Positions 16,589-55,725 of a DNA stretch of 64,000 nt are shown piece by piece. The notes under the pieces are model-generated. The model was not told the origin of the DNA. It made no database searches and saw only the letters and a program-made list of their open reading frames with translations. The stretch is taken from contig JAUWIJ010000001.1 of the NCBI GenBank assembly GCA_030605415.1, forward strand, positions 568 to 64,567, written 5' to 3'. The DNA comes from an archaeon. Its GTDB lineage: Archaea > Nanobdellota > Nanobdellia > Pacearchaeales > GW2011-AR1. Position 1 is the first letter of the stretch, and each line of letters opens with the position of its first letter. The translations under genes were made by a program, and so were the position numbers.

Positions 16589-17503
16589 TCATCTAACCTT
16601 AAAACTCGCTTGCCAACGATACTTATAAGCCCCGATATCACCCGCCTTTCGGATTTTGATTCTGCCGATTTTATTTTTAGTGTCTGTTTTTATTTCGCTT
16701 AAAACTTCTTCCCTTGTCCCAAACCCGTGATAGAAAATTATTGTTCCTTTCTTTGAAAGTTTAAGCGCGGTTTTGAGAAAAGTATCTTTGAGGTTTGGTC
16801 GGGGCATCAAGATAATATCGAAGGTTTCGATATTATCAGGGATTAGGAATTTGGGATTTGGAATTTGTGGGAGCAGAGGACTACCAACTACAAACTCCCA
16901 ACTCCGAACTGGGGATGAGGATTTGGAATTAGGGACATGTCTAAGTTTTGTTGGTAATTTCTTCGCGTCGCCATCGACCAATGTTATATAATTTTGAAAT
17001 TTATTCAGAACAATATTTTTCTTCGCTGACTCATTCGCCTTTTTATTAAGTTCATTTGAAATTATGACCGCGTGTTTCCCCGCCTGTTTTAATTTTCTCG
17101 CAATAATAATTGGATAAGGAGCAACTCCGGCAAACATGACAAGGATTTTTGTGCCAGATTTTTTAGATAACTTAACAACCTCGTCGGCGATAATTTTTCT
17201 TTCATTTGACAACCGCGGAGAAAAATAAGATTCGTCGATATTAAATTTGAATACACACTGGTTTTCTCTGTATATTGTTTCCTTTGTTTTGATTCCCGCG
17301 AGGTGTTTTGTTTTCAAGATTCGAAGTTTTCCCGAGAAGCCTTCGGTTTTTTCGACGACAGTCATAACTGTTTTATTCTCTTTCAAAAATTTTCTTGCTT
17401 TTAATTTTTTAATTAACCATAAGGTTCGTCTTGGAAATTTTAGAATCGCGATATTTCCGAGGATGTCCTGAGGAATTTTTTTCATAAATAAATACAATTT
17501 CAT
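16589..17503 (-). CDS. trm5: tRNA (guanine37-N1)-methyltransferase Trm5 family, with in-frame repeat insertion
   Basis: FSPRLSNER and MFAGVAPY SAM-MTase motifs. Carries a ~30-aa insert (HVPNSKSSSPVRSWEFVVGSPLLPQIPNPKF) encoded by a family-A repeat at ~16845-16935. Confidence 0.7.
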   Translation of the reverse strand: MKLYLFMKKIPQDILGNIAILKFPRRTLWLIKKLKARKFLKENKTVMTVVEKTEGFSGKLRILKTKHLAGIKTKETIYRENQCVFKFNIDESYFSPRLSNERKIIADEVVKLSKKSGTKILVMFAGVAPYPIIIARKLKQAGKHAVIISNELNKKANESAKKNIVLNKFQNYITLVDGDAKKLPTKLRHVPNSKSSSPVRSWEFVVGSPLLPQIPNPKFLIPDNIETFDIILMPRPNLKDTFLKTALKLSKKGTIIFYHGFGTREEVLSEIKTDTKNKIGRIKIRKAGDIGAYKYRWQASFKVR

Positions 17504-17545
17504 AGATATAAAAAGTTTTGGAAGCGTTTCTGACGTTACTTTATA

Positions 17546-18271
17546 ATGACCTCATTTCAAAAGATTTATAAAGTCTTATTACTCGCTACAAATATCACTT
17601 GCAGGAAGAAGAGTTCTATCAAGATGGAAAATAAAATTTGGGCGGTTTGGATTTCGGGAATTTTTTTAGCTGTTGCGATTTTGTCAAATTCTGCGTACGC
17701 ATCAGAGAGCACTACCTCGGTAAATTTTACAATTATTTTAAATAACGATTCTCAGAATGAAAATCTTTTTAATGGTTCCGTTGAAAACTTAATTGTTGAA
17801 GACAAATCCTTCGACTGGATTTATTTATCCTGGGATAATCCAGATGGAATATTTTCAAATCTTATTTCTTTAGATAGATTTTTGATAGGAAATACATCTG
17901 GCGAATTTTTTAATATTACTAATTTAACCGAAAACACTTTGTATGATATTTCAATTATTAGCACAGATAATTCTTCCAATTACGGTCCAACAGTTAATTT
18001 GTCTGTAACAACTCTTAGCATAACAAACGGAAATGACGACGAAGAAAACGAAGAAGATAACGACAATTACTACAGAGAATATATCACTCCAAGTTACTTT
18101 TCGAATGACGATTCAAAGAAAAAAGAAAGTGTAACAATTTATTTAAATAACGGCTTCCCAAAAATATCCAAATCCTTTTCATGGCTGAACTCATTTCTAA
18201 TATCCATTAGTTTAGCTATCTGCATTTTAACATTATCAATTTCTATTTTAATAGTAAATAGAAAATATTAA
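17546..18271 (+). CDS. Membrane-anchored secreted protein with FN3-like domain and acidic stretch
   Basis: N-terminal TM. 'DWIYLSWDNPDG...YDISIIS' FN3-like region. DDEENEEDND. C-terminal TM. Confidence 0.4.
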   Translation: MTSFQKIYKVLLLATNITCRKKSSIKMENKIWAVWISGIFLAVAILSNSAYASESTTSVNFTIILNNDSQNENLFNGSVENLIVEDKSFDWIYLSWDNPDGIFSNLISLDRFLIGNTSGEFFNITNLTENTLYDISIISTDNSSNYGPTVNLSVTTLSITNGNDDEENEEDNDNYYREYITPSYFSNDDSKKKESVTIYLNNGFPKISKSFSWLNSFLISISLAICILTLSISILIVNRKY

Positions 18272-18316
18272 CAATTTCCAAAGATATAAAAAGGTTGTTT
18301 GATTTGATTTATTGAG

Positions 18317-18879: not shown

Positions 18880-19050
18880 TTCTGAGTTCTTTCCCAAGAC
18901 CGCTCATTCCTCGCTCTTAGATCTCAGACCGCTCATTTCATTCACTCTTAGAACCACCCCCGGGACGTGCCCCCTTCCCCCTCTAAGTTCTGAGAGCGAA
19001 GCGGTCTGAGTTCTGAGTTCTAGTTGGAGTTCTCAGTTCTGCAAGATTAG
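18880..19050. repeat. Family-B repeat element (GAGTTCTGAG tandem + 'gaccgctcatttcattcactcttaga' core)
   Basis: Shares the core with 35470-35790 (inverse orientation) and 55545-55730. Confidence 0.8.
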
Positions 19051-19084: not shown

Positions 19085-19492
19085 ATGAGTTATAGGTTTT
19101 TGGAACATATGGCCGATGTGAAGTTTCGGGCTGAGGGTCCAACAATTGAAAAAGCATTTATTTCGGCGGCCGATGCGTTAAATGAGACGATTCGGGGAGA
19201 TATTAAAATTTTAGAACAGCAGGAAAAAAGTTTTGAGATTGAGGGCAAAGATGCGGAAAGTTTGCTATACAATTTTTTAGAAGAATTTTTATTTTTATTG
19301 GACGCTGAAGATTTTTTGACTGCAAGAATAAAGTCGATTTCAATTAAGCAAAATAAGTTAAGTTGCATTATTGTCGGCGATAATGCAGAACACTACAAAT
19401 TCACAAACGACGTAAAGGCAGTGACCTATAACGATATGTTTGTCCGCGAAGAAAATGGGAAGTTTATTTGTCAGGTTGTCTTGGATGTATAG
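19085..19492 (+). CDS. Archease
   Basis: N-terminal FLEHMADVKFRAEGPTIEKAF matches the archease signature (F.yL.HTADv..ra.G.tleEaF). Confidence 0.8.
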   Translation: MSYRFLEHMADVKFRAEGPTIEKAFISAADALNETIRGDIKILEQQEKSFEIEGKDAESLLYNFLEEFLFLLDAEDFLTARIKSISIKQNKLSCIIVGDNAEHYKFTNDVKAVTYNDMFVREENGKFICQVVLDV

Positions 19493-19610
19493 GTTAGGTG
19501 TTTGGGGTTCGGAGCGGGGGGGACTACTAACTCCTAACTACCAACTTCTAACTACCAACTGGAGAGGGGGGAAATATTTATAAACAAGTCATTCTTAATA
19601 TATTCAGAAA

Positions 19611-20108
19611 ATGGTGAAAAAAATTCAGATTAACATGTCGAACAAATCGTTTTATTCTTTGATTGTGTTTGGGGTTTTGATTTTGGCAGGCATTGGAGTT
19701 TACGCTTATGGGACTTCTAACCCTGCTGTTTTTGGGCATAGTGCTGGAGAGATTGAAGGTTTAGGAGAATTATTAATTCCTTCTGGGGCTGTGATGGCGT
19801 TTAATTTAGCAAGTTGCCCGTCTGGCTGGAGTACATATGCTTCTGCAAAAGATAGAGTTATTGTTGGTTCAGGAAGTTCATATTCTCTTGGTAAAAAAGG
19901 CGGAGCAAAAACACATACATTGACAATTGCTGAGATGCCGAAGCATAGACATGCATATACAAATGCAGGAAATTTTGGAGGGGGAGGGAAACATTATCCC
20001 TCTGGATATAGTCCTCAGGAAATGACTTACACTGATTATGTAGGTGGCAACCAACCTCACAACAATATGCAACCATATATTGCACTTTTATATTGTCAGA
20101 AAAATTAA
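19611..20108 (+). CDS. Phage tail-collar domain protein with N-terminal TM/signal
   Basis: THTLTIAEMPKHRHAY...HNNMQPY motif of the tail-collar (microcystin-dependent protein-like) domain. N-terminus is identical to the 12563 gene. Confidence 0.6.
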   Translation: MVKKIQINMSNKSFYSLIVFGVLILAGIGVYAYGTSNPAVFGHSAGEIEGLGELLIPSGAVMAFNLASCPSGWSTYASAKDRVIVGSGSSYSLGKKGGAKTHTLTIAEMPKHRHAYTNAGNFGGGGKHYPSGYSPQEMTYTDYVGGNQPHNNMQPYIALLYCQKN

Positions 20109-20267: not shown

Positions 20268-21782
20268 ATGAAATTAAAAAAAATTAGCAATGTCGAATGG
20301 GAAATTCCTATCGAGGGCAAAATGAATGTTCCGGGAAGAATTTTTGCCAGCGAGGAAATGGTTAAAAATTTTGACGATAAGTGCTTAGAGCAAGTGAAAA
20401 ATGTTGCGAAATTGCCCGGGATTCTGAAAGCAAGTTATGCTATGCCAGATATGCATTTGGGCTACGGTTTTCCAATCGGCGGAGTCGCTGCGTTTGACAT
20501 TGACAAAGGTGTAATTAGTCCGGGTGGCGTCGGCTATGACATTAATTGTTCTGTGCGTTTATTGAAAACGAATTTGAAAGCGGAGGATTTAGTTGGTAAA
20601 GAAAAAGAGTTGGCACATTCGTTGTTTCGCACGGTGCCGTCGGGAATTGGTAGAAAAGGTAAAATTTTATTAGATGCTAAAGAACTAGATGAAGTTCTAA
20701 TCGGCGGGGCACAATGGGCTGTTAAAAAAGGTTATGGACAGAAAGAAGATTGTTTGCATATTGAAGAAGAGGGAAAAATGGAAGGAGCAAATCCGTCGGC
20801 AGTGTCGCAGAGAGCGAAAGGCAGAGGAATGTCTCAACTGGGTTCTCTCGGCGCAGGGAATCATTTTTTGGATGTATTAATTGTTGATGAGATTTTTGAT
20901 GAAAAAGTTGCAAAAGTTTTTGGTCTGGAAATTGGACAGATTGTGATTTTAATTCATTGCGGTTCGAGAGGGCTCGGACATCAGGTCGCGTCAGATTATA
21001 TTAAATTGATGGAAAATAAATATGGTTATCCGGATTTTGACAGAGAGTTAGTAAACGCGCCGATTAAGTCCGAACTCGGACAGAAATATCTGGGAGCGAT
21101 GGCGGCCGCGGCGAACTTTGCATTCGCAAACAAACAAATAATTACTCATTTCGTCCGCGAAAATATGAAACATTATTTTCCAAATTTTAAAGCAGACGTC
21201 GTCTACGATATCTGTCATAACATTGCGAAATTTGAGAAGCACGACGTAGGAACGAAGAACTCAAAACTCAGAGGGTTAGGTGTTAGGAGTTTGGGGTTAG
21301 GGGAGACTACCAACTACCAACTACCAACTATCAACTACCGACATCCGACATCCGACATCCGAAAACAAACGGTTCTCATCATGAGAAAGGGAGCGACCCG
21401 AAGTTTTGGTCCGGGCAGAGAAGAAATCCCAGAAGATTACAGAGAGGTTGGTCAGCCAGTTTTACTACCAGGCTCGATGGGAACACCAAGTTATGTTTTA
21501 TGCGGAACCAAAAAAGCAGAGGAAATTTCTTGGGGCTCGACGGCACACGGAGCAGGTCGGGTCAAAAGCAGAACTCAGGCGCATAGAGATATGAGTTTCA
21601 ACGACGCCAAAAAAGATATGGAAAAGCGGGGCGTGTTTGTTGAGTTCGGAGGACAAAAGGGTTTGGTAGAAGAATCACCATTTTCATACAAAGATGTCGA
21701 CGAGGTTGTCCGAATTTCTGACGAAGCAGGAATTGGAAAGAAAGTTGCGAAGCTGAAACCGGTTATTGTCATAATAGGATAA
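20268..21782 (+). CDS. rtcB: RNA-splicing ligase RtcB with in-frame repeat insertion
   Basis: GGVGYDINCSVR, HCGSRGLGHQ and HNIAKFEKHDV...RKGATR motifs. A ~40-aa insert (GTKNSKLRGLGVRSLGLGETTNYQLPTINYRHPTSDIRKQT) is encoded by a family-A repeat at 21258-21362. Confidence 0.9.
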   Translation: MKLKKISNVEWEIPIEGKMNVPGRIFASEEMVKNFDDKCLEQVKNVAKLPGILKASYAMPDMHLGYGFPIGGVAAFDIDKGVISPGGVGYDINCSVRLLKTNLKAEDLVGKEKELAHSLFRTVPSGIGRKGKILLDAKELDEVLIGGAQWAVKKGYGQKEDCLHIEEEGKMEGANPSAVSQRAKGRGMSQLGSLGAGNHFLDVLIVDEIFDEKVAKVFGLEIGQIVILIHCGSRGLGHQVASDYIKLMENKYGYPDFDRELVNAPIKSELGQKYLGAMAAAANFAFANKQIITHFVRENMKHYFPNFKADVVYDICHNIAKFEKHDVGTKNSKLRGLGVRSLGLGETTNYQLPTINYRHPTSDIRKQTVLIMRKGATRSFGPGREEIPEDYREVGQPVLLPGSMGTPSYVLCGTKKAEEISWGSTAHGAGRVKSRTQAHRDMSFNDAKKDMEKRGVFVEFGGQKGLVEESPFSYKDVDEVVRISDEAGIGKKVAKLKPVIVIIG

Positions 21783-21818: not shown

Positions 21819-23795
21819 ATGGAATCAAAAAAGAGGACATTAATTATAATATGTTTATTCTTAGTTGTATTTTCTTTAAGTATTATTAACGCAAAAAGTT
21901 GTGATGTCCAGAGTTCATGTAATACAGCCAATACAGTAATGAAATTATCTTCTACATCGAATGCCCATGGTGCGTTATATAATCAGGGAAATCATAATAA
22001 TTTTTTATGTTGTGATTTTTCCGGGACACATAGCAATAATGGAGATAATAAAATAATTGGATTATCTTCTACAGCAAATGCACATGCAGAAATACCGACA
22101 CTGAGTAATTACGGAACAGGTGTTTATTTTGGCGATTTAAAATGTAGTAGTAAAAGTGGCAGTTGTCCTACTGGTTATAATATTCCGATGATTTCTTTAT
22201 CTTCCACGACAAATGCTCATGTTGCAAGTTTTAATAGTTATCCTGTAAAAATTTGTTGTTGTGCCCCTGGCGAATGGGAATGGACAGGTAACTACCGATG
22301 TGTTGGAGATATAAGACAGGGAGAGCAGCGTAGAACTCTTTGTCCTTCGGGTTACGAATATCAGTGGGTTGATTCTGCCTGCTCTTCGGGACAAAGATGT
22401 ATCGGAGCTGGGCAATGTGTTGATAATTGCATATTTACAAGCGCTTCATGGAGTAAGAGTTCAGCGGTTGAAGGAGACAGCATCCAGATGATTTTAGAAG
22501 GAACTAATTGTAATGGAAAATCAGTGAGTTTTGAAATTTATGAAGACGATTTAGTGGGAGATGATTACATGACAACAATAAGCGGGGTATTTGACAGAGG
22601 AACATGGACTGCTGAATGGGTAGAAGATGTAAGTAGTGACCCTGAATATTATTTTATAGCGATACTGGATGCTTATACTGCTGTAACAAAACAAAGTGGA
22701 TTATTAACAGTAACTACTGCATGCGGTAACGGTGTCATAACTGGAACTGAAATATGTGATGATGGAACAAACAATGGAGAGTATGGTTATTGCAAAGATG
22801 ATTGTAACGGGATGGGACCCTACATGGGAGATGGTATAATTAATGGACCCGAAGAGTGTGATGATGGGAATCAGGATAATAATGATGGATGTTCGAGTAT
22901 AGGATTATTAGAAACAGAAGTTTATTGGATGGATATGGATGGTAATAGAGTTAACGAAGCAGATTTTGGAGATACAATTCGGATGATTATAACTTGGGCG
23001 GAGTCAGGAACTTTTGAAATTAAAGAAAATAACTTATTATTTGATGATAAAATTAAAATCATAGAAGGTGTTTCTATTGAAAACGATGTCGTCGCTGAAT
23101 GGACAATAACACAGGAAGACATGGACAAGGCAGATGATTATGACGAATTTTATTTTAAAGTCGATGGAGGGGAAAAGAGTGAGTATTTAAAAATTAATCT
23201 AAGGAGAAATGATGACCCAACGAATATTACAATCATATCTCCTGAATGCGGCTCGTATTTTGATGAGAGCACAGAAGTTATTATTAATATTAATGTTGAT
23301 GATGCTGATGACGTGATTGCTGGAACTATTAGTATTGACGGAAGCCAGGTAAAGACATTCAGCAATGACGGTGCGAGTTTTAGTAGAATTTTTGATTCAT
23401 CTGGCAATTTTCAGATTGTTGTTGAAACTATTAGCGACAGAGGTGGAAGAGCCAGGTCAATTTCTAATATTATGGTTTTAAATAAAGAATCTGGAAGTTA
23501 TGTCGATGGTAAATATGTCGCGGCATGTATTACGAAACCTAAAGATTTCAGTTATATTGATGGTGGTGAGGTTGAATTTGATGCTTCGGCTACTCGAGCT
23601 GTGAGGATTACTAATAAAGTTCTTGATTTACTTGTACCTGACGAGGGTGATATTTTCAGTTGGTATTGGAAATTTCTACCCGAAGAAGTTGTAAGGAAAT
23701 TTGTTAATAGTTCCGACCTCTTAGCATATAAATTTACTGCAGAGTTCCCTATCGCCGGAGATAATTCAGCGACTCTGAGGGTTGAGATTAATTAA
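21819..23795 (+). CDS. Large secreted Cys-rich surface protein (triplicated S-x-N-x-H module, Cys-rich repeats, Ig-like C-terminus)
   Basis: Signal peptide. Three 'LSSTxNAH...CC' modules. CGNGVITGTEICDDGTNNGEYGYCKDDC repeats resemble Myxococcus Cys-rich repeats. C-terminal ~150 aa is shared with the 23840 gene. Confidence 0.5.
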   Translation: MESKKRTLIIICLFLVVFSLSIINAKSCDVQSSCNTANTVMKLSSTSNAHGALYNQGNHNNFLCCDFSGTHSNNGDNKIIGLSSTANAHAEIPTLSNYGTGVYFGDLKCSSKSGSCPTGYNIPMISLSSTTNAHVASFNSYPVKICCCAPGEWEWTGNYRCVGDIRQGEQRRTLCPSGYEYQWVDSACSSGQRCIGAGQCVDNCIFTSASWSKSSAVEGDSIQMILEGTNCNGKSVSFEIYEDDLVGDDYMTTISGVFDRGTWTAEWVEDVSSDPEYYFIAILDAYTAVTKQSGLLTVTTACGNGVITGTEICDDGTNNGEYGYCKDDCNGMGPYMGDGIINGPEECDDGNQDNNDGCSSIGLLETEVYWMDMDGNRVNEADFGDTIRMIITWAESGTFEIKENNLLFDDKIKIIEGVSIENDVVAEWTITQEDMDKADDYDEFYFKVDGGEKSEYLKINLRRNDDPTNITIISPECGSYFDESTEVIININVDDADDVIAGTISIDGSQVKTFSNDGASFSRIFDSSGNFQIVVETISDRGGRARSISNIMVLNKESGSYVDGKYVAACITKPKDFSYIDGGEVEFDASATRAVRITNKVLDLLVPDEGDIFSWYWKFLPEEVVRKFVNSSDLLAYKFTAEFPIAGDNSATLRVEIN

Positions 23796-23839
23796 TTTGA
23801 TTAAGTAAAGTTTAAATAGTATAATATTATTAATAAATT

Positions 23840-25201
23840 ATGAAAAAAGAATTGGTGGCTGGATTCGTTTTAATTTTACTCGGTAGTTTTGTAGTTATTG
23901 CCGGAACGTGCGACGACGATCAGACAATTATGAGATTATATAGTGCTTCAAATTCGCATGTTTCTTTCTGGAATGAAGATACCGCAGATTATACGGTAGA
24001 GATTTGCTTTGATGAAATTTTCGGTTCAACATATACCGGAGCAAACCCGCATGATTGCACCGGAGAAAATAAAGTTTTAAGTTTATTTGATGTAGAGAAT
24101 TCTCATGCATCGAGCACAGCCGATAGTAACTATAATAATGAAGTTTGTTATGGACGTTTAAAATGCGTTTACGATAGTAGTGATAATGATGAATGTTCAA
24201 ATGACGGGAAAATCGTAGCGAGAATGTACAGCGAATACAATACTCATGTTTCGGTTGCATCAGATACAAATTATGACGTGAAAGTTTGCTGTAAAGCATC
24301 GGAAGCTTATTGGGCAAACATGAATGGCGATAGAATTACCGAAGCAGATTTTGGCGATACGGTTAAATTAGTTTTGACAGGTACTTCTGATATTCATGAT
24401 TTTGAAATTTTCGAAGAAGACGATGGAATAATAGGATTCCTTACTGGCGGTGACGATTCAATTAAAACTGTGACAGGAAGCGCAACTGACGGTAATCTTA
24501 TTACCAAATGGACGATAACACAAGAAGATTTAGACAAGACAAATGATTATGATAATTTTAGGTTTATGGCTAATGGCGAGATAAGCAAAGATTTGAAAAT
24601 CAATTTAAATGGTGATGATAGCGAAATGGATGTTACAATTTCATCTCCAAAATGTGGCTCGCATTTTGATGAGGGTACAGAAATTACTATTACCGTTGAT
24701 GCTAATGACGCTGACGATGCAATTGAAGGAACCATTACTATTGACGGAGATGTCGTAAAAACGTTTAGCAACGGAGGCATTACCTTTAATAAAATTTTCA
24801 GTTCATCAGGCAATTCCCAAATTGTTGTCGAAGCGGTTAACAGCAGAGGAAAAAATGTTAGAGCAATTTCTAATATTATGGTTTTGGATAAGGAAGCTGG
24901 AAGTTATGTTGATGGTAAATATGTCGCGGCATGTATTGCAAAACCTAAAGATTATAGTAACATTGACGGAAGCGTAGTTGAGTTTGATGCTTCGACCACT
25001 AGAGCCATAAAAGTTGTTAACGGAGTTCTTGATTTGCTTGTGCCCGACGAGGGTGATGTTTTTAGCTGGTATTGGAAATTTATGCCAGAAAACATAGTCA
25101 GAGAGTTTATTCAGAGTTCCGAATCTATTGCATACAAATTTACCGCAGAGTTTCCTATTGCCGGAGATAATTCAGCGACGCTAAGAGTTGAAATAGATTA
25201 A
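23840..25201 (+). CDS. Paralogous secreted Cys-rich surface protein
   Basis: Signal peptide. Three 'S-x-N-[ST]-H' modules. C-terminal domain ~75% identical to 21819's (ISNIMVL...FPIAGDNSATLRVEI). Confidence 0.5.
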   Translation: MKKELVAGFVLILLGSFVVIAGTCDDDQTIMRLYSASNSHVSFWNEDTADYTVEICFDEIFGSTYTGANPHDCTGENKVLSLFDVENSHASSTADSNYNNEVCYGRLKCVYDSSDNDECSNDGKIVARMYSEYNTHVSVASDTNYDVKVCCKASEAYWANMNGDRITEADFGDTVKLVLTGTSDIHDFEIFEEDDGIIGFLTGGDDSIKTVTGSATDGNLITKWTITQEDLDKTNDYDNFRFMANGEISKDLKINLNGDDSEMDVTISSPKCGSHFDEGTEITITVDANDADDAIEGTITIDGDVVKTFSNGGITFNKIFSSSGNSQIVVEAVNSRGKNVRAISNIMVLDKEAGSYVDGKYVAACIAKPKDYSNIDGSVVEFDASTTRAIKVVNGVLDLLVPDEGDVFSWYWKFMPENIVREFIQSSESIAYKFTAEFPIAGDNSATLRVEID

Positions 25202-25256
25202 TTTGATTAAGTAAAGTTTAACGCAATATTTATAAAGAACTGATTTATGTAATTAT

Positions 25257-30546: not shown

Positions 30547-30985
30547 GATGGTTGGTGAAAAAAAGAAGGTTATTAAGAAAGGTAAAAAAATTACTAAGAA
30601 AAATATTGGCGATTTAATGATTCATTTTATGCCATATTCGGAAATTGCAAGGGAAGATGCAATTGGAAGGATTAAAAAAATTATGGGGTTAATTCTCGAC
30701 CATAAAATTATTATTTTACAGGGACGGTTAAGTTCAGATGAAGAGGCGCGTCTGATTGAAAATTCGATGGTTTTAATTGGCAACGTTAAGGGCTTCCAGG
30801 GAATTGAAATTGCAGCGATGTCGGGAGAAAACGAATATAGGAGCTTGTTTGAGAGGATAAGACGTAACATTGCGAAAATTTTAGTAGGAGAACAAGATGC
30901 GATTACAATTATTGGTCCGGCTTCAGTTGTAAAAGAGATTACTAAAAATCCTAAAAAACTTGAGTTGATGTTGCAGAAAAGGTAG
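30536..30985 (+). CDS. Conserved archaeal hypothetical protein (possibly DUF2073-like)
   Basis: Lys-rich N-terminus and globular C-terminus. The family assignment is from memory of the GTPase/DUF2073/Zn-ribbon archaeal neighbourhood, not sequence proof. Confidence 0.3.
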   Translation: MKFKMVGEKKKVIKKGKKITKKNIGDLMIHFMPYSEIAREDAIGRIKKIMGLILDHKIIILQGRLSSDEEARLIENSMVLIGNVKGFQGIEIAAMSGENEYRSLFERIRRNIAKILVGEQDAITIIGPASVVKEITKNPKKLELMLQKR

Positions 30986-31047
30986 AGCAAAACTTATAAC
31001 AGGAAGGTTTATTAATTTCTTAATTCTATAAATTTAAGGAGATAAAA

Positions 31048-31416
31048 ATGCCACACCAATGCGTCCACTGTTCGAAAATAATTGAAGTAGGGAGTAAGGA
31101 AATTCTTGAGGGTTGTAATAGTTGTGGTGGGAAGTTTTTTTTCTATATTCGTGATGAACAGGCGTTACAAATAAAAGAATCAAGGGAGACGCCGATTCCA
31201 GAATTTGATACCGTTGATAAGAAAAAAATTGAAAAAGACGTCAGAAGCATCTTAAAAATTGAGGACGAAACAAAGCCGGTTATTTTAGACATAGAAAGCA
31301 TTAGAGTTTTAGGACCAGGACAATTTGAAATTGATATTGTTTCTTTGATGAATCGTCGACCGATTGTTTTTAAGTTACAAGAAGGTAAGTATTTGATTGA
31401 TATAGAAGGGATGTGA
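31048..31416 (+). CDS. Zn-ribbon protein (possibly DUF2072-like)
   Basis: N-terminal CxxC...CxxC (CVHCSK...CNSCGG). Confidence 0.35.
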   Translation: MPHQCVHCSKIIEVGSKEILEGCNSCGGKFFFYIRDEQALQIKESRETPIPEFDTVDKKKIEKDVRSILKIEDETKPVILDIESIRVLGPGQFEIDIVSLMNRRPIVFKLQEGKYLIDIEGM

Positions 31417-31555
31417 GACTGGGAATTTGGGACACGAGCTAGGTATTTGGTATTTGGGATTTGGGATTTGTGGGAGCAGGGGACTACCAACTACAAACTC
31501 CCAACTCCGAACTGGGGATGGGGATTTGTGAGAAACAGGGAAGGGGATTGGAAGC
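31417..31555. repeat. Family-A repeat element, intergenic; ~75 nt near-identical to the copy inside trm5
   Basis: gatttgtgggagcaggggactaccaactacaaactcccaactccgaactggggatgggga matches 16858-16932 with 2 mismatches. Confidence 0.85.
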
Positions 31556-31570: not shown

Positions 31571-32947
31571 ATGGAGAATAACTTTACAAACTTTAATAAA
31601 CCGATTTTTCTTGTCTGGATTATGACCATGAAAGATATTTTAAAAAAAGAGATTGAATTAATTTCACTTTCTCGTGAGGAAATTTTAAAATTATCCAAAG
31701 TTGCTAAAGAATTTATTACCTCTCTTAAAGCGGAGGGGCTTAATGCTTACGTCGGTGGCAGTTTAGCAAAAGGGACTGTAATTAAAGGGGAGGGTTTGTT
31801 TCCGTCTATGGATACTTCCGGAGAACCTCAGGATGTAGATATTTTTGTTGTATTTAATTACAGCGAAGATATTAAAAAACTGGAAGGAATTTTAAAGAAG
31901 ATTAATTTACCTGGCATTTTAAAAAAAGTTCATGGCTCAAGAGATTATTTTCAAATTAATTGTGGCACACCCAAGGGTATACCTCCTGCCCAGATGGCAT
32001 CCACTGACGCGGACAAGGTCGGCAATGCTTTATTAGAAGTAATTCCCGTTGTAAAAAATAACGACCCCGAGCTGGCGGAAAACGTGACAGATGTTTCGCT
32101 TAGTCACGTTAAATATATTGGCGGGGAGATAAAGAAAAATCCGAAAATTGCCGACGATATTAAATTAGCGAAAGCGTTTTGTCGGGCAAATCGTTGCTAC
32201 GGCGCAGAGGGTTATGCCCGAGGTTTTAGTGGCTATTCGCTGGAAGTGTTAGTTATTTATTTTGGCGGATTTGTGAAATTTTTAAAAAGAATTCAAAAAA
32301 AGCGGGTGATTGACCCATTAAAATATTTTAGAAGTGAGCGGGAAATTTTAAGTGAGTTAAATGCGTCGAAACTAAACTGTCCCGTGGTTTTAATTGACCC
32401 GACTTACAAATATAGAAATATTTCAGCAGGATTAGGACTTGAGAGTTTTGAAAGATTTATTGATACCGCTAAGAAATTTTTAAAATCACCGTCGTTGAAG
32501 TTTTTTGAGAAGAAAGATATCGACATTGAAGAAATAAAAAAGTTTGCTAAAAGTAGAAAGGCAAAGTTTATCGAAATAGATTTGAAGACAGATAGACAAG
32601 ATGGAGATATTGCTGGGACGAAGATGAAAAAGTTTTTGGATTTTTTTGCTAAAGAATTGGTTCGAAAACAGCAAAAGGTTCTTAGAAAGGAATTTGATTA
32701 TTTGGGCGGGAAGAAAGCCAAAGGATATTTGGTTGTCGAGGAGAAAATGGAAATTGAGTTACGGGGACCTTCGGTTGGACTAGAAGAAGCGGTTAAAAAT
32801 TTCAAGAAAGCAAAAGGCAGAAAAATCTTTGAAAGAAAAAATTATTGGTGGTGCAAAGAAAAAAGCGGAGTTGCTGAGGTGTTTAAATTGGTTGGAAAAG
32901 TTGAGGGAGAGATGGGAGCGAGGATGGAATTAGGGATTGGGGATTAG
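31571..32947 (+). CDS. cca: CCA-adding tRNA nucleotidyltransferase (archaeal class I), with in-frame insert and repeat-extended C-terminus
   Basis: GGSLAKGT...DVDIFVV NTase motif. 18-aa insert PKGIPPAQMASTDADKVGNA identical to one in GatB. C-terminal 'GARMELGIGD' is encoded by a family-A repeat. Confidence 0.7.
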   Translation: MENNFTNFNKPIFLVWIMTMKDILKKEIELISLSREEILKLSKVAKEFITSLKAEGLNAYVGGSLAKGTVIKGEGLFPSMDTSGEPQDVDIFVVFNYSEDIKKLEGILKKINLPGILKKVHGSRDYFQINCGTPKGIPPAQMASTDADKVGNALLEVIPVVKNNDPELAENVTDVSLSHVKYIGGEIKKNPKIADDIKLAKAFCRANRCYGAEGYARGFSGYSLEVLVIYFGGFVKFLKRIQKKRVIDPLKYFRSEREILSELNASKLNCPVVLIDPTYKYRNISAGLGLESFERFIDTAKKFLKSPSLKFFEKKDIDIEEIKKFAKSRKAKFIEIDLKTDRQDGDIAGTKMKKFLDFFAKELVRKQQKVLRKEFDYLGGKKAKGYLVVEEKMEIELRGPSVGLEEAVKNFKKAKGRKIFERKNYWWCKEKSGVAEVFKLVGKVEGEMGARMELGIGD

Positions 32948-32984
32948 GTATTTGTGGGGAAGGAAAAGTTGATATTAGAATTTT

Positions 32985-33284: not shown

Positions 33285-33431
33285 AAAATTATAAATATTG
33301 TTTAGTTTAAATTAATTGTGGTGTTCAAATTAGTTAAGAAAGTTGAGGGAGAGATGGGTGCTTTCGGGAAAATTATTTAGCTCGAACAAAATAGGAAGGT
33401 TTATATACAAACTTCTATATAAAGATATATA

Positions 33432-33689
33432 ATGAAACAGGTATTACACTATCCTAATTTGAAAACTATGTTATCTATAGAAAGGACTTTAAGAGATGCG
33501 GAAATGATGATTAATAGGGAAGAATTAAAAAGAAGATTGCCGATGAAAATAATGCACCAAACAATGAATATAGTTTTAGATTATTTGGAACAGAGAGGAA
33601 TGCTAATTGATAGCCATAAAGGAATATTATGGATTTACAATCCAAGTTCTAAATTAAAAAAAGCAATTGAGAAAGGAAGAGAAATTTGA
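33432..33689 (+). CDS. Putative antitoxin (partner of RelE-like)
   Basis: 85 aa. Stop overlaps the downstream start (ATGA). Weak. Confidence 0.3.
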   Translation: MKQVLHYPNLKTMLSIERTLRDAEMMINREELKRRLPMKIMHQTMNIVLDYLEQRGMLIDSHKGILWIYNPSSKLKKAIEKGREI

Positions 33690-34063
33690 TGTTTGAAAAT
33701 AAGGAGATAAAGGTGATTCTATCTAATGAGGCAGATGATGTGTATAAAGAGTTAAATCAAATTGTGGGCAAGGAAAAGAAAAATAATGTTGAGTCTTCTT
33801 TTCATCAATCTTTGTTAAGGTCGATAAATAGAGCTGTAGACTTATTGAAAGAAAATCCATTTGCGGGAAACCAAATTCCAAAAAGACAAATTCCAGAAAA
33901 ATATATTGTCACATATGATACTGAAAATATTTGGAGAATTGAAATTGCTAATCGCTGGAGATTAATTTATACAATAACTGGAAATCAGTTGGAAATAATT
34001 AATTTTATTGTAGACATTTTTGATCATAAAAAATACGATAAAGTTTTTGGATATAAGCATTGA
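33686..34063 (+). CDS. RelE/ParE-family toxin-like protein
   Basis: NPFAG...IWRIEIANRWRLIYTI...DHKKYDKVF resembles RelE/ParE toxins. Confidence 0.5.
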   Translation: MMFENKEIKVILSNEADDVYKELNQIVGKEKKNNVESSFHQSLLRSINRAVDLLKENPFAGNQIPKRQIPEKYIVTYDTENIWRIEIANRWRLIYTITGNQLEIINFIVDIFDHKKYDKVFGYKH

Positions 34064-43562: not shown

Positions 43563-43665
43563 GCTTTCGTAGCTCAGCAGGTAGAGCGCACGGCTGTTAC
43601 ATGGGTTTGCTTTGGTAGATTTTGCAGAGACCGTGATGTCGGAGGTTCGAGTCCTCCCGAAAGCG
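43563..43665 (+). tRNA. tRNA-Asn(GUU) with ~30-nt intron in the anticodon loop
   Basis: Hand fold. Acceptor GCTTTCG/CGAAAGC. D arm GCTC-AGCAGGTA-GAGC. Anticodon stem CACGG/CCGTG with loop CTGTTA + intron (43600-43629) + A. T arm GGAGG-TTCGAGT-CCTCC. Discriminator G. No encoded CCA. Confidence 0.75.
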
Positions 43666-44215
43666 TAGCTGAGTCGAACCGACGACGTCGGAGGCGAAAA
43701 CCTTTGCTCGAATTTTGCACAAACAGAAATATATCGCAAAATTTCAGAGTGAAGTTTGAGTAGAGTCCTCCCGAAAGCGTAGCTGAGTAGGACATCGAAC
43801 CGTAGACGTCGGAGGCGAGCAATTTACTCGAATTTTTCTCAACAAGAAAATAAAATCGACAAAATTTCAGTGTGCCCCGCCCAGTTTCAAATATATTTGG
43901 TAGGGTATAGAGTGAAGTTTGAGTAGAGTCCTCCCGAAAGCGTAGCTGAGTAGGACATCGAACCGTAGATTGTCGGTGTGAGTTTCGAGCTGTTTGACTA
44001 AATCCAAATACACAAATTGCTCGGAACGAAAGAAAATCTTTGCTCCTCGCAGAGGTTCCTGTGACCCTTGTGGTTACGAATTTTGTCTAAAAAATAAAAA
44101 TAAAATCGACAAAATTTCAGTATGCCCCGCCCAGTTTCAAATATATTTGGTAGGGTATAGAGTGAAGTTTGAGCAGAGTCCTCCCCGAAGTGTAGTTAAG
44201 TCAAACCGACGACGT
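43666..44215. repeat. Array of three degenerate copies of the tRNA-Asn 3' end with ~240-nt duplicated spacer
   Basis: gagtcctcccgaaagcgtagctgagt recurs at ~43757, ~43927 and ~44175 (last copy degenerate). Spacer 43838-43960 duplicates 44090-44200 (aaaataaaatcgacaaaatttcagt.tgccccgcccagtttcaaatatatttggtagggtatagagtgaagtttgag). Confidence 0.7.
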
Positions 44216-44271
44216 CTAACACCCAAACCAATTTCCAAATAATTTATAAACTTCTTTTTCTATTTTATTCT

Positions 44272-49548: not shown

Positions 49549-50973
49549 TCACTCAAAATCCTTCGCTAGTTTAAAAATTAATTCCTCTTGAAAATGTGGT
49601 GCCACAATTTGGAGTCCGACATCTTTGTTATCGAGTTTCCCTACTGGAATTGAGATTGCCGGGAGTCCTGCGATTGAAGCTGGCGTTGTGAAGACATCGT
49701 AAGCATACATATCTTTAACAGAGATTATCTCGCCAATTTTATGTGGAGTTCTCGGAACAGTTGGAAGAATTATAATATCGACCTCTTGGAAAATTTTTTC
49801 AAATTGTTGCTTGATAAAATTTCTTGCTTTTAGCGCCTCTCTATAATACTTCCCCTCGTGCTCGGCTTTCGTAATTTCGGAACCACCAATAATTCTTCTG
49901 ATGACTTCCGGACCCACAACTTCTTCAATTTTTTTTCCAAATCTTCGACCATCAAATTTTCGCGTTGCTGAGAAAAATTCGGTGTAAACAATTATATAAT
50001 AAGTTTGAATTGTAATATCTAACGGCAAATTTATTTTTTTAATTTTCCAATTATTTTGTTTTCCAATTTCTTTTGTTTTAGTTTCGATTAATTCTGCAAT
50101 TTCTTTCGGGCAAAAATCCTGAACATTCACCAATCCGATTACTCCCTTGTGCGGGTCTGAGGTCTGAGGTCTGAGTCGGCGTGCCCCAACCCATTTGAGT
50201 CTGCCCCAACCTGATTCTCTTTCATATTTGTGAGGGTATTCCCTTTTATCTGTGAGGGTATCTGAGGTCTGAGTCGTCTGGTCAAAGTTGTCTTGTCCTT
50301 TAATTATATTGAAAATTAATCTTGCGTCTTCCGGAGTTTGTGTTAACGGTCCGATGCAATCGAAAGACATTGTGTTATCTATTAGCCCGTATCGCGACAC
50401 CGCTCCATAAGTTGGTTTTAGTCCGACGATTCCGCAGTGCGATGCCGGATTTCGAATTGAACCACCAGTATCTGAACCTAACGAAAAATCGCAAAGTTCT
50501 GCAGCAACCGCCGCCGCTGAACCTGAGCTTGTCCCACCCGGAACTAATTCTGGATTTCTAGGATTTTTTGTTGGACCAAATGCCGACGTCTCTCCCGACG
50601 ACCCACAAGCGAACTCGTCCATGTTAACCATTCCTAAAATTATCGCATCCTCGGCTAAGAGTTTGTTTATTACCGTCGCATTATAAGGAGAAACATATCC
50701 TTCCAAAACTTTCGAGCCGCAATTTGTCTCAAGCTCTCTAACTGAAATATTTGATTTTACGGCGAAACATAAACCTGCTAGTTTTCCCGCCGTTCTCTTT
50801 TTTATTCGCTTATCTATTTCTTTTGCCTGCTCAATTGCGTTTTCATTCAAAGATAAAAAAATATTCAAGTCTTTTGTTTTTGGTGTTGCAATTTTTTTAG
50901 AAAAATTCATTAGGTTTTCAACTGCGGTTAGTTTTCCTGATTTGATTTGTTTGAGTTTATGTTTAAGTGTCAT
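49549..50973 (-). CDS. gatA: Glu/Asp-tRNA amidotransferase subunit A (amidase family) with in-frame repeat insertion
   Basis: Amidase signature GGTSSGSAAAVAA. A ~46-aa in-frame insert (…DTLTDKREYPHKYERESGWGRLKWVGARRLRPQTSDPHKG) is encoded by the family-C repeat at 50150-50290. Confidence 0.8.
   Translation of the reverse strand: MTLKHKLKQIKSGKLTAVENLMNFSKKIATPKTKDLNIFLSLNENAIEQAKEIDKRIKKRTAGKLAGLCFAVKSNISVRELETNCGSKVLEGYVSPYNATVINKLLAEDAIILGMVNMDEFACGSSGETSAFGPTKNPRNPELVPGGTSSGSAAAVAAELCDFSLGSDTGGSIRNPASHCGIVGLKPTYGAVSRYGLIDNTMSFDCIGPLTQTPEDARLIFNIIKGQDNFDQTTQTSDTLTDKREYPHKYERESGWGRLKWVGARRLRPQTSDPHKGVIGLVNVQDFCPKEIAELIETKTKEIGKQNNWKIKKINLPLDITIQTYYIIVYTEFFSATRKFDGRRFGKKIEEVVGPEVIRRIIGGSEITKAEHEGKYYREALKARNFIKQQFEKIFQEVDIIILPTVPRTPHKIGEIISVKDMYAYDVFTTPASIAGLPAISIPVGKLDNKDVGLQIVAPHFQEELIFKLAKDFE
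50150..50290. repeat. Family-C repeat (GGTCTGAG tandem + 'ccccaacc' + 'tgtgagggtat' duplications) inside gatA
   Basis: gggtctgaggtctgaggtctgag...ctgtgagggtatctgaggtctgag. In-frame within the amidase ORF. Confidence 0.75.
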
Positions 50974-51378: not shown

Positions 51379-51379
51379 T

Positions 51380-53331: not shown

Positions 53332-54108
53332 ATTGGATGGAAGTTATGAGGTTTTTTAAGTTTGTTGGCTTGTTGTGGGATTTAATATATTGAAGTATAA
53401 CAATTTTTATAAAGTGAGTTTAGTTTTTTAAGAGATGGAAGATGCGGGAAATGAATGTTCTTCAGAGGAAAGAATTTTACGGAGAGTTGGATTCGATTTT
53501 ATGACTAATCGTCCAATGTATGGAGCATATAGCATTAAATCTTTTGATAAGGGCAGGTTGTGTTCTTTAGAAAGGATGTATAGGAAAACTAACAAGGAGA
53601 AATCTATTACGAGTTTTGGTAAGGTTTTTCCTAGATATGTAAATCATTATCGAGATTAATTAAAATCCTGAAGTTGATAAGCAAGTTTTTAAACTAAAAA
53701 GTTTTTGAGGTGTTATGGACGTTGATAATTTAGAGAACGCAATTAATTCCGCAAAAAATCCCGATGACAAAACCGTCGAAGAGAATAAAACTCCAGAGAT
53801 GTCGCAAGAGCAGGAAATCGGTTTTCATAAAGGAGCTTTGAATACGTTGGTTGCCGAGAGGACGGAGCTGGTTAAAATGGTTGGAAATATCGAAGCAATA
53901 ATGCAGGCACATATTAAAAGATTAAAAGAGTTGGGAGTTGATATCAAATAATGGAAGTGCGAAAAAGGAGTTTAATTCTCGCCGGAATTGGTGCTGCCAT
54001 TGGTGGTGCTTTGGGTGCAGTTTGCGGTTCAAATAGCTGGGTTGTCGTCGCTGTTGTTTCCGCCGTGTTTGCTATCTTAACAGTTTGGGGATTAGAAGGG
54101 ACGATTAA

Positions 54109-55725
54109 CTAACCACACAATTCCCTCAAAACTTCACTTACTTCTTTCCCAGAAACCTGACCCTTGAATTTTCCCATAACTAATCCCATATAAGCTCCCT
54201 GAGATAATCCCGGTTTTTCTCTAATCAACTTCTCAACTTCTTCTTTCAAATTAATATCAGACTTTTCCATTGCTTCATCCAAAGACATTCCCTGCGCAAT
54301 TTTTTGCATTACCGTTTTCACATCGTTGCTCGAAATGTTTTTACCGACGTGTTCGAGAATCGCCTCAAGAGTGTGAGCATTAAAAATTTCCTCAAGTTCC
54401 CCTTTGGACTTATTTTCCTTTTTCCCAATCTCAGTTTGAAACAGCGTTAAGGATTTTGCGATTAGTTCGTAATTAGAAATTGTTTTAGCGAGAACTTTAA
54501 AATCTTCTACCTTGTTTCGTTTCAAAACCAGTTTCATCAATTCATCATTAAGACCAAATTCGCTCAGATAAGATTTATGTTCGGATGCAAGTTTCGGCAG
54601 ATTCTTTCTCGTTTTGTTAATTAGTTCTCTTGATATTTTCAGGAGCGGAACGTCGGTTTCGGGATACATCCGCGCAGCACCAGGCATTGGTCGGAGGAAT
54701 TCCGTTGTTCCGTCGGGAAGAGCATTTCGAACTTCATTTTTGCAAGATTTTTCTTTAATACGTTTCTGTTGCCTTGCGATTTCCATATCTATAGTTTTTA
54801 TCATCATCTTCGTATCCTGAAAACCCTTAATCTCAACTCGCTTACTTTCCTTAATCGAAATATTAACATCCTGACGAATCGTCCCAATTCCCCGCTTAAT
54901 TTTACATGCCCGCAAAATTTCCCCAATTTTCAAAGCCGCCTCTTTAATTTCTTCCGGCGTATGCATATGAGGACCCGTCGCAATTTCAACCAACGGAATT
55001 CCCAACCTGTCTAACTTGTAAGTTGTAGTTTCTTCATCTCTGGCAACCACTCGCGCAGAATCCTCTTCGAGCATTATCGCATCAATCGGAATTTTCCCCG
55101 ACGAGATTTCAATGTATCCGTCGTGAGCAATCAATACCGTTCGCTGAAACCCCGTTGTATTTGAACCATCAATCACAGTCTTACGCATGACCTGAGCGAC
55201 CGGAAATATTTTACAATTTAAAAGATGCGAAATCTGCAATGCAATTTTCAGAGCTTCCCGATTTATTGAATGTGGTGGTTCCTCGTCAATTTCAACAAGA
55301 CAATTTGTGTCATAAACCTGATAGATAAATTTCTTGTTTTGCAATTTTTCGTGAGCAACCGCTACATCAATTTTACCCGTTTCACCGACGACAGGATTCA
55401 ACGTTCTCTGGATTTCATACTGTGGCTTATCATTCCGCAAAAGACTTGGGCAGTCACAAAAAAGTTTATGCGTGTCCAACTGCTGATGAATTTCCAGCCC
55501 CGATTTCAATCCAACTTTTTTATAGTCGTAAACTGTGGGGGCTGAGGTTGTTTCACTTCCAGAACTGAGACCGCTCCGCTCTGAGAACTTAGACCGCTTT
55601 GCTCTTAGAGATTCTTCCGCTTTCCCGTCCCTGCCCCCGTCGGTTTCCCCTTCTGAGTTCTGAGTACCGAGTTCTGAGTTCTGGACTTCCCGTCCACCGA
55701 GTTCTGAATTCTTGTCGGATTTCAT
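54109..55725 (-). CDS. gatE: Glu-tRNA(Gln) amidotransferase subunit E with repeat-encoded N-terminal extension
   Basis: GLEIHQQLDTHKLFCDC motif. N-terminal ~65 aa (SELGGREVQNSELGTQNSEGETDGGRDG...) is encoded by family-B repeat 55545-55725. Confidence 0.85.
   Translation of the reverse strand: MKSDKNSELGGREVQNSELGTQNSEGETDGGRDGKAEESLRAKRSKFSERSGLSSGSETTSAPTVYDYKKVGLKSGLEIHQQLDTHKLFCDCPSLLRNDKPQYEIQRTLNPVVGETGKIDVAVAHEKLQNKKFIYQVYDTNCLVEIDEEPPHSINREALKIALQISHLLNCKIFPVAQVMRKTVIDGSNTTGFQRTVLIAHDGYIEISSGKIPIDAIMLEEDSARVVARDEETTTYKLDRLGIPLVEIATGPHMHTPEEIKEAALKIGEILRACKIKRGIGTIRQDVNISIKESKRVEIKGFQDTKMMIKTIDMEIARQQKRIKEKSCKNEVRNALPDGTTEFLRPMPGAARMYPETDVPLLKISRELINKTRKNLPKLASEHKSYLSEFGLNDELMKLVLKRNKVEDFKVLAKTISNYELIAKSLTLFQTEIGKKENKSKGELEEIFNAHTLEAILEHVGKNISSNDVKTVMQKIAQGMSLDEAMEKSDINLKEEVEKLIREKPGLSQGAYMGLVMGKFKGQVSGKEVSEVLRELCG

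Follow-up and report, generated by a model that had tools for sequence, protein, structure and literature searches.

How do short repeats come to lie inside conserved housekeeping genes while leaving the reading frames of these genes open? The question is raised by a stretch of 64,000 nucleotides (nt) from an archaeon of the Pacearchaeales (lineage GW2011-AR1; assembly GCA_030605415.1, contig JAUWIJ010000001.1), hereafter the window, in which related repeats are found in spacers and inside the genes for RtcB, Trm5, the CCA-adding enzyme (CCA) and the amidotransferase proteins GatA, GatB, GatD and GatE. Palindromic repeats that colonize core genes in frame are a textbook feature of Rickettsia and are known sporadically for bacterial MITEs (miniature transposable elements with inverted repeats). 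A preliminary description of the window, made from its letters alone, had proposed that the same phenomenon is at work in this archaeon. Here we show that its central claim, in-frame insertion of repeats into conserved housekeeping genes, is borne out, with elements present at the sites it had named, and we argue that these elements are probably selfish repeats of the hairpin and heptamer-array type that have been copied between loci and whose in-frame copies have been kept in tolerant loops.

The window has a GC content of ~35%, and the nearest database relatives of its housekeeping genes are metagenome-assembled genomes (MAGs) of Candidatus Pacearchaeota, Nanoarchaeota and Woesearchaeota, which marks the organism as a member of DPANN. 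Pfam scans of ~56 open reading frames (ORFs) across the window confirmed all five host ORFs that had been named before (RtcB, Trm5, CCA, GatA and GatE), and an archease gene is also encoded, alongside RtcB. We compared the window with a syntenic sister genome (contigs L205, L206 and L207; 88–95% amino acid identity; ~24 orthologous gene pairs), with the 119 best orthologs of each of RtcB, GatA and Trm5 for protein lengths, and with 80 species-representative rtcB loci recovered by tblastn, independently of gene calling.

The repeats form families that recur between and within genes

The two main repeat families, A and B, are imperfect palindromes whose arms consist of tandem 7-nt units. In family A, a G-rich arm built from GGGAGTT, GGGATTT or GGTTAGG units is joined through a short loop to a C/A-rich arm made of AACTCCN or AACTACC units, and family B comprises (AGAACTC/G)n, a GC-rich core and (GAGTTCT)n, the unit core AACTC being common to both. 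Families C, D and E are further modules, which travel with A and B or alone (Table 1). A pattern representing the C/A-rich arm of family A, (ACTNCNA)x4.4, matched the window six times (at 12482, 16880, 19523/19530, 21306 and 31483) versus 0 matches in 100 shuffles, and a family B pattern, (AGAACTN)x3, matched eight times (at 18.9, 35.5 and 55.6 kb), again versus 0 in shuffles. All family A matches fell on the + strand, an apparent strand bias that we discounted, since a palindrome looks the same from either strand and, of the two arms, only the C/A-rich one is well preserved. Tandem Repeats Finder, together with a scan for period-7 autocorrelation, located arrays at 12.4, 16.8, 19.5, 21.3, 31.4, 32.9, 35.5 and 55.6 kb.

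Separate copies also have sequence in common outside their periodic part, as seen by BLAST of the window against itself. The copy in trm5 (16838–16925) and an intergenic copy (31441–31528) are identical at 82 of 88 nt (93%); their near-identity had been noticed before, and the count of about 2 differences over 75 nt given then came close to the ~3 mismatches that we find. The gatE copy matches the intergenic copy at 35.5 kb (85% over 78 nt), the rtcB copy matches that at 19.5 kb (78% over 69 nt), and the family D copies of cca and gatB match each other (93% over 60 nt), in frame in both genes. As to family C, a pattern search with fixed spacing found nothing, the spacing being variable, and the window holds no second copy; nevertheless, family C units occur in related genomes, i.e., in an intergenic element of contig L084, in the sister trm5 and in the sister spacer behind the HerA-like gene, which makes C a real family, as had been proposed.

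All five intergenic copies begin 0–18 nt past the stop codon of the upstream gene, or overlap it. When folded as single-stranded DNA, three of them form strong hairpins (12436–12522, z = -5.55, -19.3 kcal/mol; 35540–35662, z = -5.80; 18905–19045, z = -3.99) and two fold no better than shuffled sequences (19488–19572, z = -0.03; 31425–31545, z = -1.6). The same holds for the genic copies (Trm5, z = -1.2; RtcB, +0.8; GatA, +1.9; GatE, -0.9), as well as for families D and E and the first GatB insert. The window contains two canonical G-quadruplex (G4) motifs, by prediction, versus 0.24 expected, and both lie in intergenic copies of family A.

The intergenic family A copies that had been reported are all present, but those at 12440 and 19492 are not two independent insertions, since both lie inside a single 290-nt segmental duplication (12432–12720 versus 19478–19765; 84.5% identity), which spans the element together with a promoter and the 5' portions of two paralogs, of which one is Gp10_C-like. 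The third copy lies directly downstream of oapB/oapC (30548–31416), which encode origin-associated proteins; the cumulative GC skew climbs from ~6 kb to ~34 kb, and a replication origin near these genes is possible.

Table 1. Host genes and repeat elements of the window (coordinates are window positions; aa, amino acids)
Feature	Coordinates	Strand	Description
Host genes
RtcB	20268–21782	+	Pfam
Trm5/TYW2-type methyltransferase	16589–17503	-	Pfam
Archaeal CCA-adding enzyme (cca)	31571–32947	+	Pfam
GatA	49549–50973	-	Pfam
GatE	54109–55725	-	Pfam
GatB	59091–60554
GatD	57752–58982	-	split into two ORFs
Genic elements
rtcB, composite insert	21252–21362	+	aa 329–365; B-type arm remnant (gaacgaagaactcaaaactcaga), family A core, then (CCGACAT)x3.6
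trm5, family A insert	16823–16945	-	aa ~187–228, RHVPNSKSSSPVRSWEFVVGSPLLPQIPNPKFLIPDNI; in frame
gatA, variable segment	50149–50271	-	aa 235–275; family C units flanked by direct (GGTCTGA)n arrays
gatE, family B insert	55528–55719	-	64 aa in frame, directly after codon 2
gatB, G-rich short-repeat insert	59172–59225	+	+9 aa, VSGCRCSGVGGSEDI; tandem repeat TCGGAGGG
gatB, family D insert	60082–60141	+	+18 aa, APKGVPPAQMASAKADKVGN; in frame
cca, family D insert	31968–32027	+	TPKGIPPAQMASTDADKVGN; in frame
cca, G-rich half of family A	32905–32960	+	supplies last ~11–14 codons and stop; no hairpin
gatD, family E 16-nt array	58765–58807	-	GTAGGACGCTTCGCTG x2.7, perfect tandem; Tandem Repeats Finder
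Intergenic elements
Family A	12436–12522		10 nt past stop of HerA-like gene; G-rich heptamer arm, loop, AACTCCN/AACTACC arm; G4 motif
Family B	18880–19045		upstream of archease; homologous to 35.5 kb and GatE copies
Family A	19488–19572		overlaps archease stop codon; decayed hairpin
Family A	31417–31555		directly after oapC stop, upstream of cca; G4 motif
Family B composite	35486–35772		18 nt past stop codon; 30-nt and 57-nt sub-repeats; hairpin

Inserts in RtcB and Trm5 fall between well-predicted structural elements

The RtcB insert, previously put at ~40 aa, was measured at 39: the window protein has 504 aa, compared to 465–466 aa in its close orthologs, and the 119 best homologs mostly have 465–472 aa. 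An ortholog alignment places the extra residues between FEKH and VL(V/I)MRKGATR, and an alignment to the Protein Data Bank (PDB) structure of P. horikoshii RtcB (1uc2) places them at the turn of a beta-hairpin. Aligning the DNA of the rtcB loci, we found that contig L082, whose RtcB is 86% identical to that of the window, has an empty site at this position and that contig L084 carries a family B hairpin at exactly the site of the window's insert.

Trm5 of the window has 304 aa, i.e., 43 more than the baseline of 260–261 aa and 37 more than its sister counterpart; the presence of this insert had been recognized correctly, whereas its size had been underestimated at ~30 aa. The additional residues are flanked by GDAKKLP and FDIILMPRPN and correspond to a 1-residue gap in an alignment with the Trm5b structure 5yac. 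Where the window's trm5 has 123 nt of family A, the sister gene has 12 nt; the latter harbors an 84-nt insert of its own, consisting of two family C units, at another site.

In AlphaFold2 models of the two proteins, built with the ortholog alignments, the predicted local confidence score (pLDDT) of RtcB (predicted template modeling score, pTM, 0.84) fell below 50 only at residues 329–365, between the strands 320–327 and 367–374, and that of Trm5 (pTM 0.82) only at residues 191–217, between the helix 180–188 and the strand 228–233, and in the first 7 residues. Both inserts are therefore predicted to occupy low-confidence loops between well-predicted elements, in line with the surface loops suggested in the preliminary description. 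PDB alignments likewise put the insert gaps at turns or chain ends in RtcB, Trm5, GatE and GatB.

Next to its family A insert, trm5 shows a duplication of another kind. Its 3' end (16585–16757) is repeated at 15046–15218 (83% over 173 nt) and again at 13985–14037, and between these copies lie a Fic/DOC gene (14081–14992) and an AAA_14/DUF4143 ATPase gene (15290–16579), neither of which is found in the sister genome. It looks as if cassettes of accessory genes had been inserted here one after another, with a duplication of the gene end each time.

The gat genes and cca carry inserts of several families

GatA of the window has 474 aa and exceeds the baseline of 443 aa by a net 31 aa, so that the insert stands but at less than the ~46 aa first assigned to it. 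The sister GatA contains an orthologous insert, which is 15 aa shorter and has diverged, with arrays of different length and composition. The core of the window's gatA insert is 87% identical over 45 nt to the intergenic element of L084.

The N-terminal family B extension of GatE, described before as ~65 aa, comprises 64 aa. The sister GatE begins with MK-FDYKK, from which it follows that the window's gatE kept its start codon and gained 64 family B codons. In agreement, the alignments of 150 GatE cluster representatives and of both PDB GatE chains start at about residue 66 of the window protein and at one of the residues 1–5 of the other protein. The inserted peptide resembles the RtcB insert of P0004.

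Three further inserts, one in cca and two in gatB, had been overlooked. The family D segment of cca lies in a region ~29 aa longer than that of A. fulgidus CCA (1r89). The 9-aa G-rich insert of GatB is missing from the sister GatB and from the PDB structures of GatB, and the family D insert of GatB is missing from the sister protein and from Aquifex GatB (3h0l).

The last ~15 aa of CCA had been ascribed to a family A element. An element is indeed present there, but it is a G-rich half element that has replaced the 3' end of the gene, and the displaced original C-terminus (ending in VEGEMGAFGKII and a stop codon) is still found at 33317–33381. The cca end (32875–32919) is repeated at 33317–33361, the two copies flanking ~440 bp that contain a small ORF on the minus strand, and a gene for a ParE/YoeB-like toxin (33689–34063) lies just downstream of the second copy.

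In gatD, a perfect array of a 16-nt unit is followed immediately by a frameshift, apparently caused by one extra A in the run cctacaaaaattaccc (A5), as compared to the intact 413-aa GatD of the sister genome, which carries an equivalent array-derived peptide. An extra 16-nt unit was considered as the cause and dropped, since the comparison with the sister gene favors the extra A. The frameshift could be real, making gatD a pseudogene, or could be a population variant or a sequence error. The peptide encoded by the array (ASYQRSVLPAKR) also constitutes N-terminal extensions of Trm5 in P0305 and P0353.

Open frames probably reflect selection after insertion

The preliminary description had stated that every insertion keeps an open frame, and this is true of all inserts, gatD being frameshifted just past its array-derived segment. 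Every genic copy is free of stops in the frame that its host reads, and the other five frames mostly contain stops, with one or two extra open frames in GatA, the CCA half element and family D. Two explanations had been offered for this, frame-neutral insertion and insertion into surface loops. The former was rejected, since intergenic copies contain 0–10 stops per frame and the elements are thus not intrinsically frame-neutral; selection after insertion, at tolerant surface positions, is the better explanation. Moreover, hosts differ in the frame and orientation in which they read one and the same family.

The larger sample of rtcB genes gave a similar picture. Each of the 80 loci yielded one full-length rtcB high-scoring segment pair in a single frame, and all seven inserts found, in 5 of the 80 loci, were in frame, which would have a chance of (1/3)^7, ~5e-4, were their length free. 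Several of these inserts are small hairpins. Taking these observations together with the structure models, we consider it most likely that the inserts are translated and form disordered loops.

Insertion sites are hot spots across the clade

The inserts of RtcB, Trm5, GatE and GatB are missing from relatives at 83–95% identity, and distant orthologs, like most close ones, are without the inserted segments. The sister genome itself has empty sites for the inserts of Trm5 and GatE, for both inserts of GatB and for one intergenic family B copy, that upstream of archease; the comparison with related genomes that had been proposed thus revealed the presence/absence polymorphism it was meant to look for.

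Among the 119 best orthologs of each protein, ~13% of RtcB, 7% of GatA and 27% of Trm5 are clearly longer than baseline, and their extra residues lie mostly in the same few loops or at the N-terminus. The insertion sites of RtcB, GatA and Trm5 are hot spots across the clade, holding differing inserts. Many of these carry peptide signatures of heptamer arrays, namely QNSELRT, from (CAGAACT)n, and TNYQLPT, TDYRLPT or QIPNPK, from (AACTACC)n, and short variants made of an array only occur as well, such as that of P0127 with TTQNSELRTQNS, which adds only 3 aa.

The repeat families are shared with the related genomes represented by L084 and L205–L207, and close relatives carry different families at one and the same site: in the RtcB loop, the window has family A where L084 has B, and in the spacer behind the HerA-like gene it has A where the sister genome has a composite of B and C. 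Elements are also nested, the RtcB insert combining a remnant of B with A and the GatA insert consisting of family C units inside a heptamer array. The picture of insertion drawn in the preliminary description therefore holds, though not as one insertion per site, given these hot-spot loops, the nesting and the replacement of one family by another. Heptamer arrays number 9 in the 64 kb of the window versus 1 in 1.2 Mb of the 80 related loci, which indicates a burst in this lineage.

Two other Pacearchaeota species have rtcB genes with AT-rich double-hairpin inserts encoding KIFGNSKTKSF-like peptides (L037, 10337–10393 and 10973–11023, two sites in one gene; L038, 1790–1846). These inserts suggest a separate element family that behaves alike.

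A metagenome-wide scan for (ACTNCNA)x4.4 returned at least 120 heterogeneous contigs with a GC content of 31–66%, many of them evidently bacterial, and no further copies from this organism were among the contigs listed. Many of those listed contain hairpins of inverted AACT-core arrays, or arrays inside long ORFs (L085–L204; e.g., L086, L089, L104, L139, L143 and L161; L152, L155, L106 and L097), which shows this architecture to be widespread. The long ORFs, as judged by eye, encode proteins resembling AMP-binding/nonribosomal peptide synthetase-like, EPSP-synthase-like and nitrilase-like proteins. Carriage of the elements by viruses was also considered and set aside: six viral contigs contain (AGAACTC)n, but these are simple arrays in direct orientation that lack both a hairpin partner and a shared core.

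Probable copying between loci and its alternatives

Shared non-periodic cores, together with filled and empty sites, indicate that the elements were copied between loci, and the re-use of sites and the nesting suggest a preference for existing arrays or hairpins, or else gene conversion. We therefore favor, as the likely explanation, that selfish hairpin and heptamer-array repeats spread among loci and that their in-frame copies were kept in tolerant loops. Copy-and-paste or gene conversion of DNA would give rise to new copies, probably via single-stranded hairpin or slippage intermediates, and these copies would often land in or beside existing arrays, which would afterwards grow, shrink and decay by slippage. 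In spacers, elements would sit directly behind stop codons as stable hairpins. Most insertions in coding DNA would be lethal, and the survivors would be those whose length is divisible by three, which have no stop in the host frame and which lie at a chain end or in a surface loop; these would be translated as disordered low-complexity peptides tolerated by the enzyme, and their hairpin potential would then erode. In this account, translation of the inserts, their neutrality and the mechanism of copying are the parts that we infer.

Several observations speak against this explanation. The Pfam scan of the ~56 ORFs across these 64 kb revealed no transposase, RAYT or other mobilizing enzyme, and comparison of filled with empty sites yielded no definable target-site duplication or clean termini, the flanks having diverged. 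Families C, D and E, as well as the genic copies, show no hairpin folding. The exact re-use of a loop by different families is unexpected under random insertion followed by selection, and hints at targeting, conversion or in situ evolution. Finally, all in-frame inserts detected lie in RtcB, Trm5, CCA, GatA, GatB, GatD and GatE, i.e., in tRNA-maturation or tRNA-dependent amidotransferase genes, a restriction that a purely neutral model does not predict, though it may be due to chance, the sample being small and assembled post hoc.

Among the alternatives, we first considered that the arrays are heptanucleotide microsatellites that expanded in situ, by polymerase slippage, at fragile spots such as loops and gene ends, the likeness of their units being convergent, with certain heptamers favored. 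The 7-nt periodicity of the arrays fits this explanation, as do the arrays at the orthologous GatA site, whose length and composition differ from window to sister genome, the short array-only variants such as that of P0127, and the like arrays in unrelated bacterial contigs of 31–66% GC, some of them inside long ORFs; furthermore, heptamers are reported to be the most abundant repeats of 5–11 nt and have been attributed to slippage (PMC4679880, PMC4692102). However, slippage leaves unexplained why non-periodic stretches of 88, 78 and 60 nt are 85–93% identical between unrelated loci, why non-periodic loops, GC-rich cores and family C and D units are also common to separate genomes, and why whole elements of 110–190 nt are present or absent at otherwise colinear sites. 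As the sole explanation we consider slippage unlikely, but since the units are heptamer arrays like those of bacterial heptameric repeats, it contributes beside copying.

A bolder possibility, to which we give a rather small chance, is that the repeats constitute a new class of archaeal mobile element that inserts non-randomly, homing to arrays or structured sites and preferring the seven tRNA-related genes listed above. If that preference were true, its reason might be that hairpins in mRNA are handled by the tRNA-maturation machinery, that the encoded flexible peptides modulate tRNA binding, or that insertion is linked to these loci being transcribed or replicated. If true, the AACT-core heptamer hairpins in bacterial contigs would also point to a copying mechanism shared across domains.

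The same restriction to tRNA-related genes could instead mean that the inserted peptides are adaptive, e.g., that they form flexible appendages of tRNA-maturation enzymes, which bind tRNA or partner proteins, and are kept by positive selection. Compared to the sister genome, in-frame insertions or deletions of at least 9 aa occur in 5 of 7 tRNA-related genes versus 0 of 17 others (post-hoc Fisher test, p ~5e-4), and the same loops carry inserts in 7–27% of the 119 best orthologs. Yet this test is post hoc and its sample small, different lineages have unrelated, fast-changing insert sequences at one and the same site, the inserts are predicted to be disordered, identical DNA is also found in spacers, and the frame and orientation in which one family is read vary between hosts. 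Taken together, we regard an adaptive role as improbable.

We next considered whether the segments are removed, either as bulge-helix-bulge (BHB) introns, by the tRNA splicing endonuclease and RtcB, or as mini-inteins. The elements are self-complementary, their hosts are tRNA-processing genes, RtcB and archease are encoded in the window, and introns of archaeal protein-coding genes are known, as in Cbf5 (PMC2738675), which, like the inserts, are intervening sequences in a conserved gene. A bona fide intein is even present in the neighboring HerA-like gene. Against removal, a custom scan of the sense strand of seven host regions for helix-bulge-helix-bulge-helix (h-B-H-B-h) structures gave only non-specific matches and no bulge pair bracketing an insert, and the excess of weak matches only reflects self-complementarity. 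All inserts are multiples of three and stop-free in the host frame, which splicing would not need, and the best hairpins belong to intergenic copies, which cannot be introns. As for inteins, Pfam found only host domains in the five host proteins and neither a Hint nor an intein domain, whereas the true intein in ORF 9814–12426 was picked up by the same search, and the inserts measure only 18–64 aa. Removal of the segments is thus very improbable.

The HerA/DUF87-like ATPase gene itself (9814–12426) carries an intein with a LAGLIDADG endonuclease domain, and its sister counterpart lacks a 1303-nt segment (10001–11303), i.e., this intein is polymorphic in presence and absence.

It is scarcely credible that the inserts are ancient, vertically inherited loops of Pacearchaeota whose likeness to intergenic repeats is coincidental. 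Variability of the same positions in many lineages and the diverged GatA insert common to the sister genome would fit such an origin, but it is largely refuted by the empty sites of relatives at 83–95% identity, and the Trm5 insert shares 93% identity with an intergenic element, a closer match than that between the trm5 genes of the sister genomes. The chance that repeats were mis-joined into genes during assembly or binning of this MAG is negligible: repeats are a known cause of mis-assembly and the GatD frameshift shows that the sequence may contain errors, but independent assemblies from NCBI, ENA and Logan contain an identical RtcB, insert included, other samples have homologous inserts, and the frames run on intact through every junction.

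Relation to known repeats

The closest parallel is with Rickettsia palindromic elements (RPEs), which lie in frame in housekeeping genes and encode a peptide that is tolerated at fold-compatible positions (PMC10969869). Like RPEs, the window elements are short, multi-copy palindromic repeats found in spacers and in frame inside unrelated housekeeping genes, and their peptides lie, by prediction, at fold-compatible positions. Unlike RPEs, they reside in an archaeon, their arms are tandem heptamer arrays, they are composite and nested, and the same loops are re-used by different families; in addition, every RPE family specifies a single conserved peptide, whereas the reading frame and orientation vary within one family here. 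By this analogy, in which the RPE sequences themselves were not compared, the window elements appear to work like RPEs without being members of RPE families.

Bacterial heptameric repeats offer a second parallel. The GGGNATC-type heptamers of Xanthomonas and Nostoc are G-rich, have G4 potential and preferentially lie within 0–50 bp of a stop codon or overlap it (PMC4692102), and TAACTGA repeats are scattered across lineages of Beggiatoaceae, Cyanobacteria and Bacteroidetes (PMC4679880); neither paper describes such repeats in archaea. Cyanobacterial short tandemly repeated repetitive (STRR) sequences, GGGNATC and TAACTGA repeats share with the window elements the 7-nt unit, variable copy number, a G-rich strand and a location near stop codons. 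They differ in that two inverted arrays here form a long hairpin with copied non-periodic cores, and in that the window elements are frequent inside essential genes. A purely periodic repeat made by slippage only does not fit either, for the non-periodic loops and cores are conserved at 85–93% between loci and genomes.

Repetitive extragenic palindromic (REP) sequences and the REPINs formed from them are palindromes of 20–40 bp with GTAG or CGTC tags, associated with a gene for a REP-associated tyrosine transposase (RAYT), a Y1 transposase. The window elements are instead heptamer arrays of 85–290 nt, such tags were not seen in the element sequences read, and Pfam found no Y1 transposase among the window ORFs. 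MITEs, REP/REPIN sequences and the archaeal MITEs, PATEs and SMRs of Sulfolobus and Haloquadratum vary in presence and absence between strains and tend to insert into other elements (PMC3119063, PMC3116915, PMC10969869). The window elements resemble them in being small, non-autonomous, palindromic and multi-copy, but no terminal inverted repeats matching a transposon were found, and inverted heptamer arrays stand in place of defined termini. For archaeal MITEs, PATEs and SMRs, the literature searched does not describe in-frame colonization of core genes, nor does it describe in-frame colonization by repeats of any kind in archaea or DPANN. Introns of the BHB type, in turn, are set apart by the lack of a BHB at the insert boundaries, by the frame kept in all inserts and by the presence of the elements in spacers.

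If general, such elements would account for a share of the length variation and of the "low-complexity loops" in DPANN housekeeping proteins, a variation that affects annotation, alignment and the quality of phylogenomic markers in these lineages. The inserts would also provide a natural map of insertion-tolerant loops in RtcB, Trm5, GatCAB and GatDE, and bacterial heptameric repeats and RPE-like elements would be joined through one architecture, that of inverted heptamer arrays, which raises the question of how repeats are copied without a recognizable transposase.

Other duplications in the window

Further duplications were noted elsewhere in the window. The pattern of a duplicated gene end, seen at trm5 and cca, recurs once more: the end of ORF 6311–7750 (from 7676) is repeated at 8623–8718 (92% over 96 nt), around a cassette with a GNAT acetyltransferase gene. 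An Rfam scan of the whole window at gathering thresholds matched one intron-containing tRNA (43563–43665), missed by ARAGORN, and no other RNA family; it is followed by tandem repeats of ~121 nt (43649–44229) that repeat the 3' part of the tRNA and are maybe integration remnants. Lastly, two adjacent genes with Big_7 domains (21819–23795 and 23840–25201) are 75% identical over 718 nt (23098–23815 versus 24507–25221).

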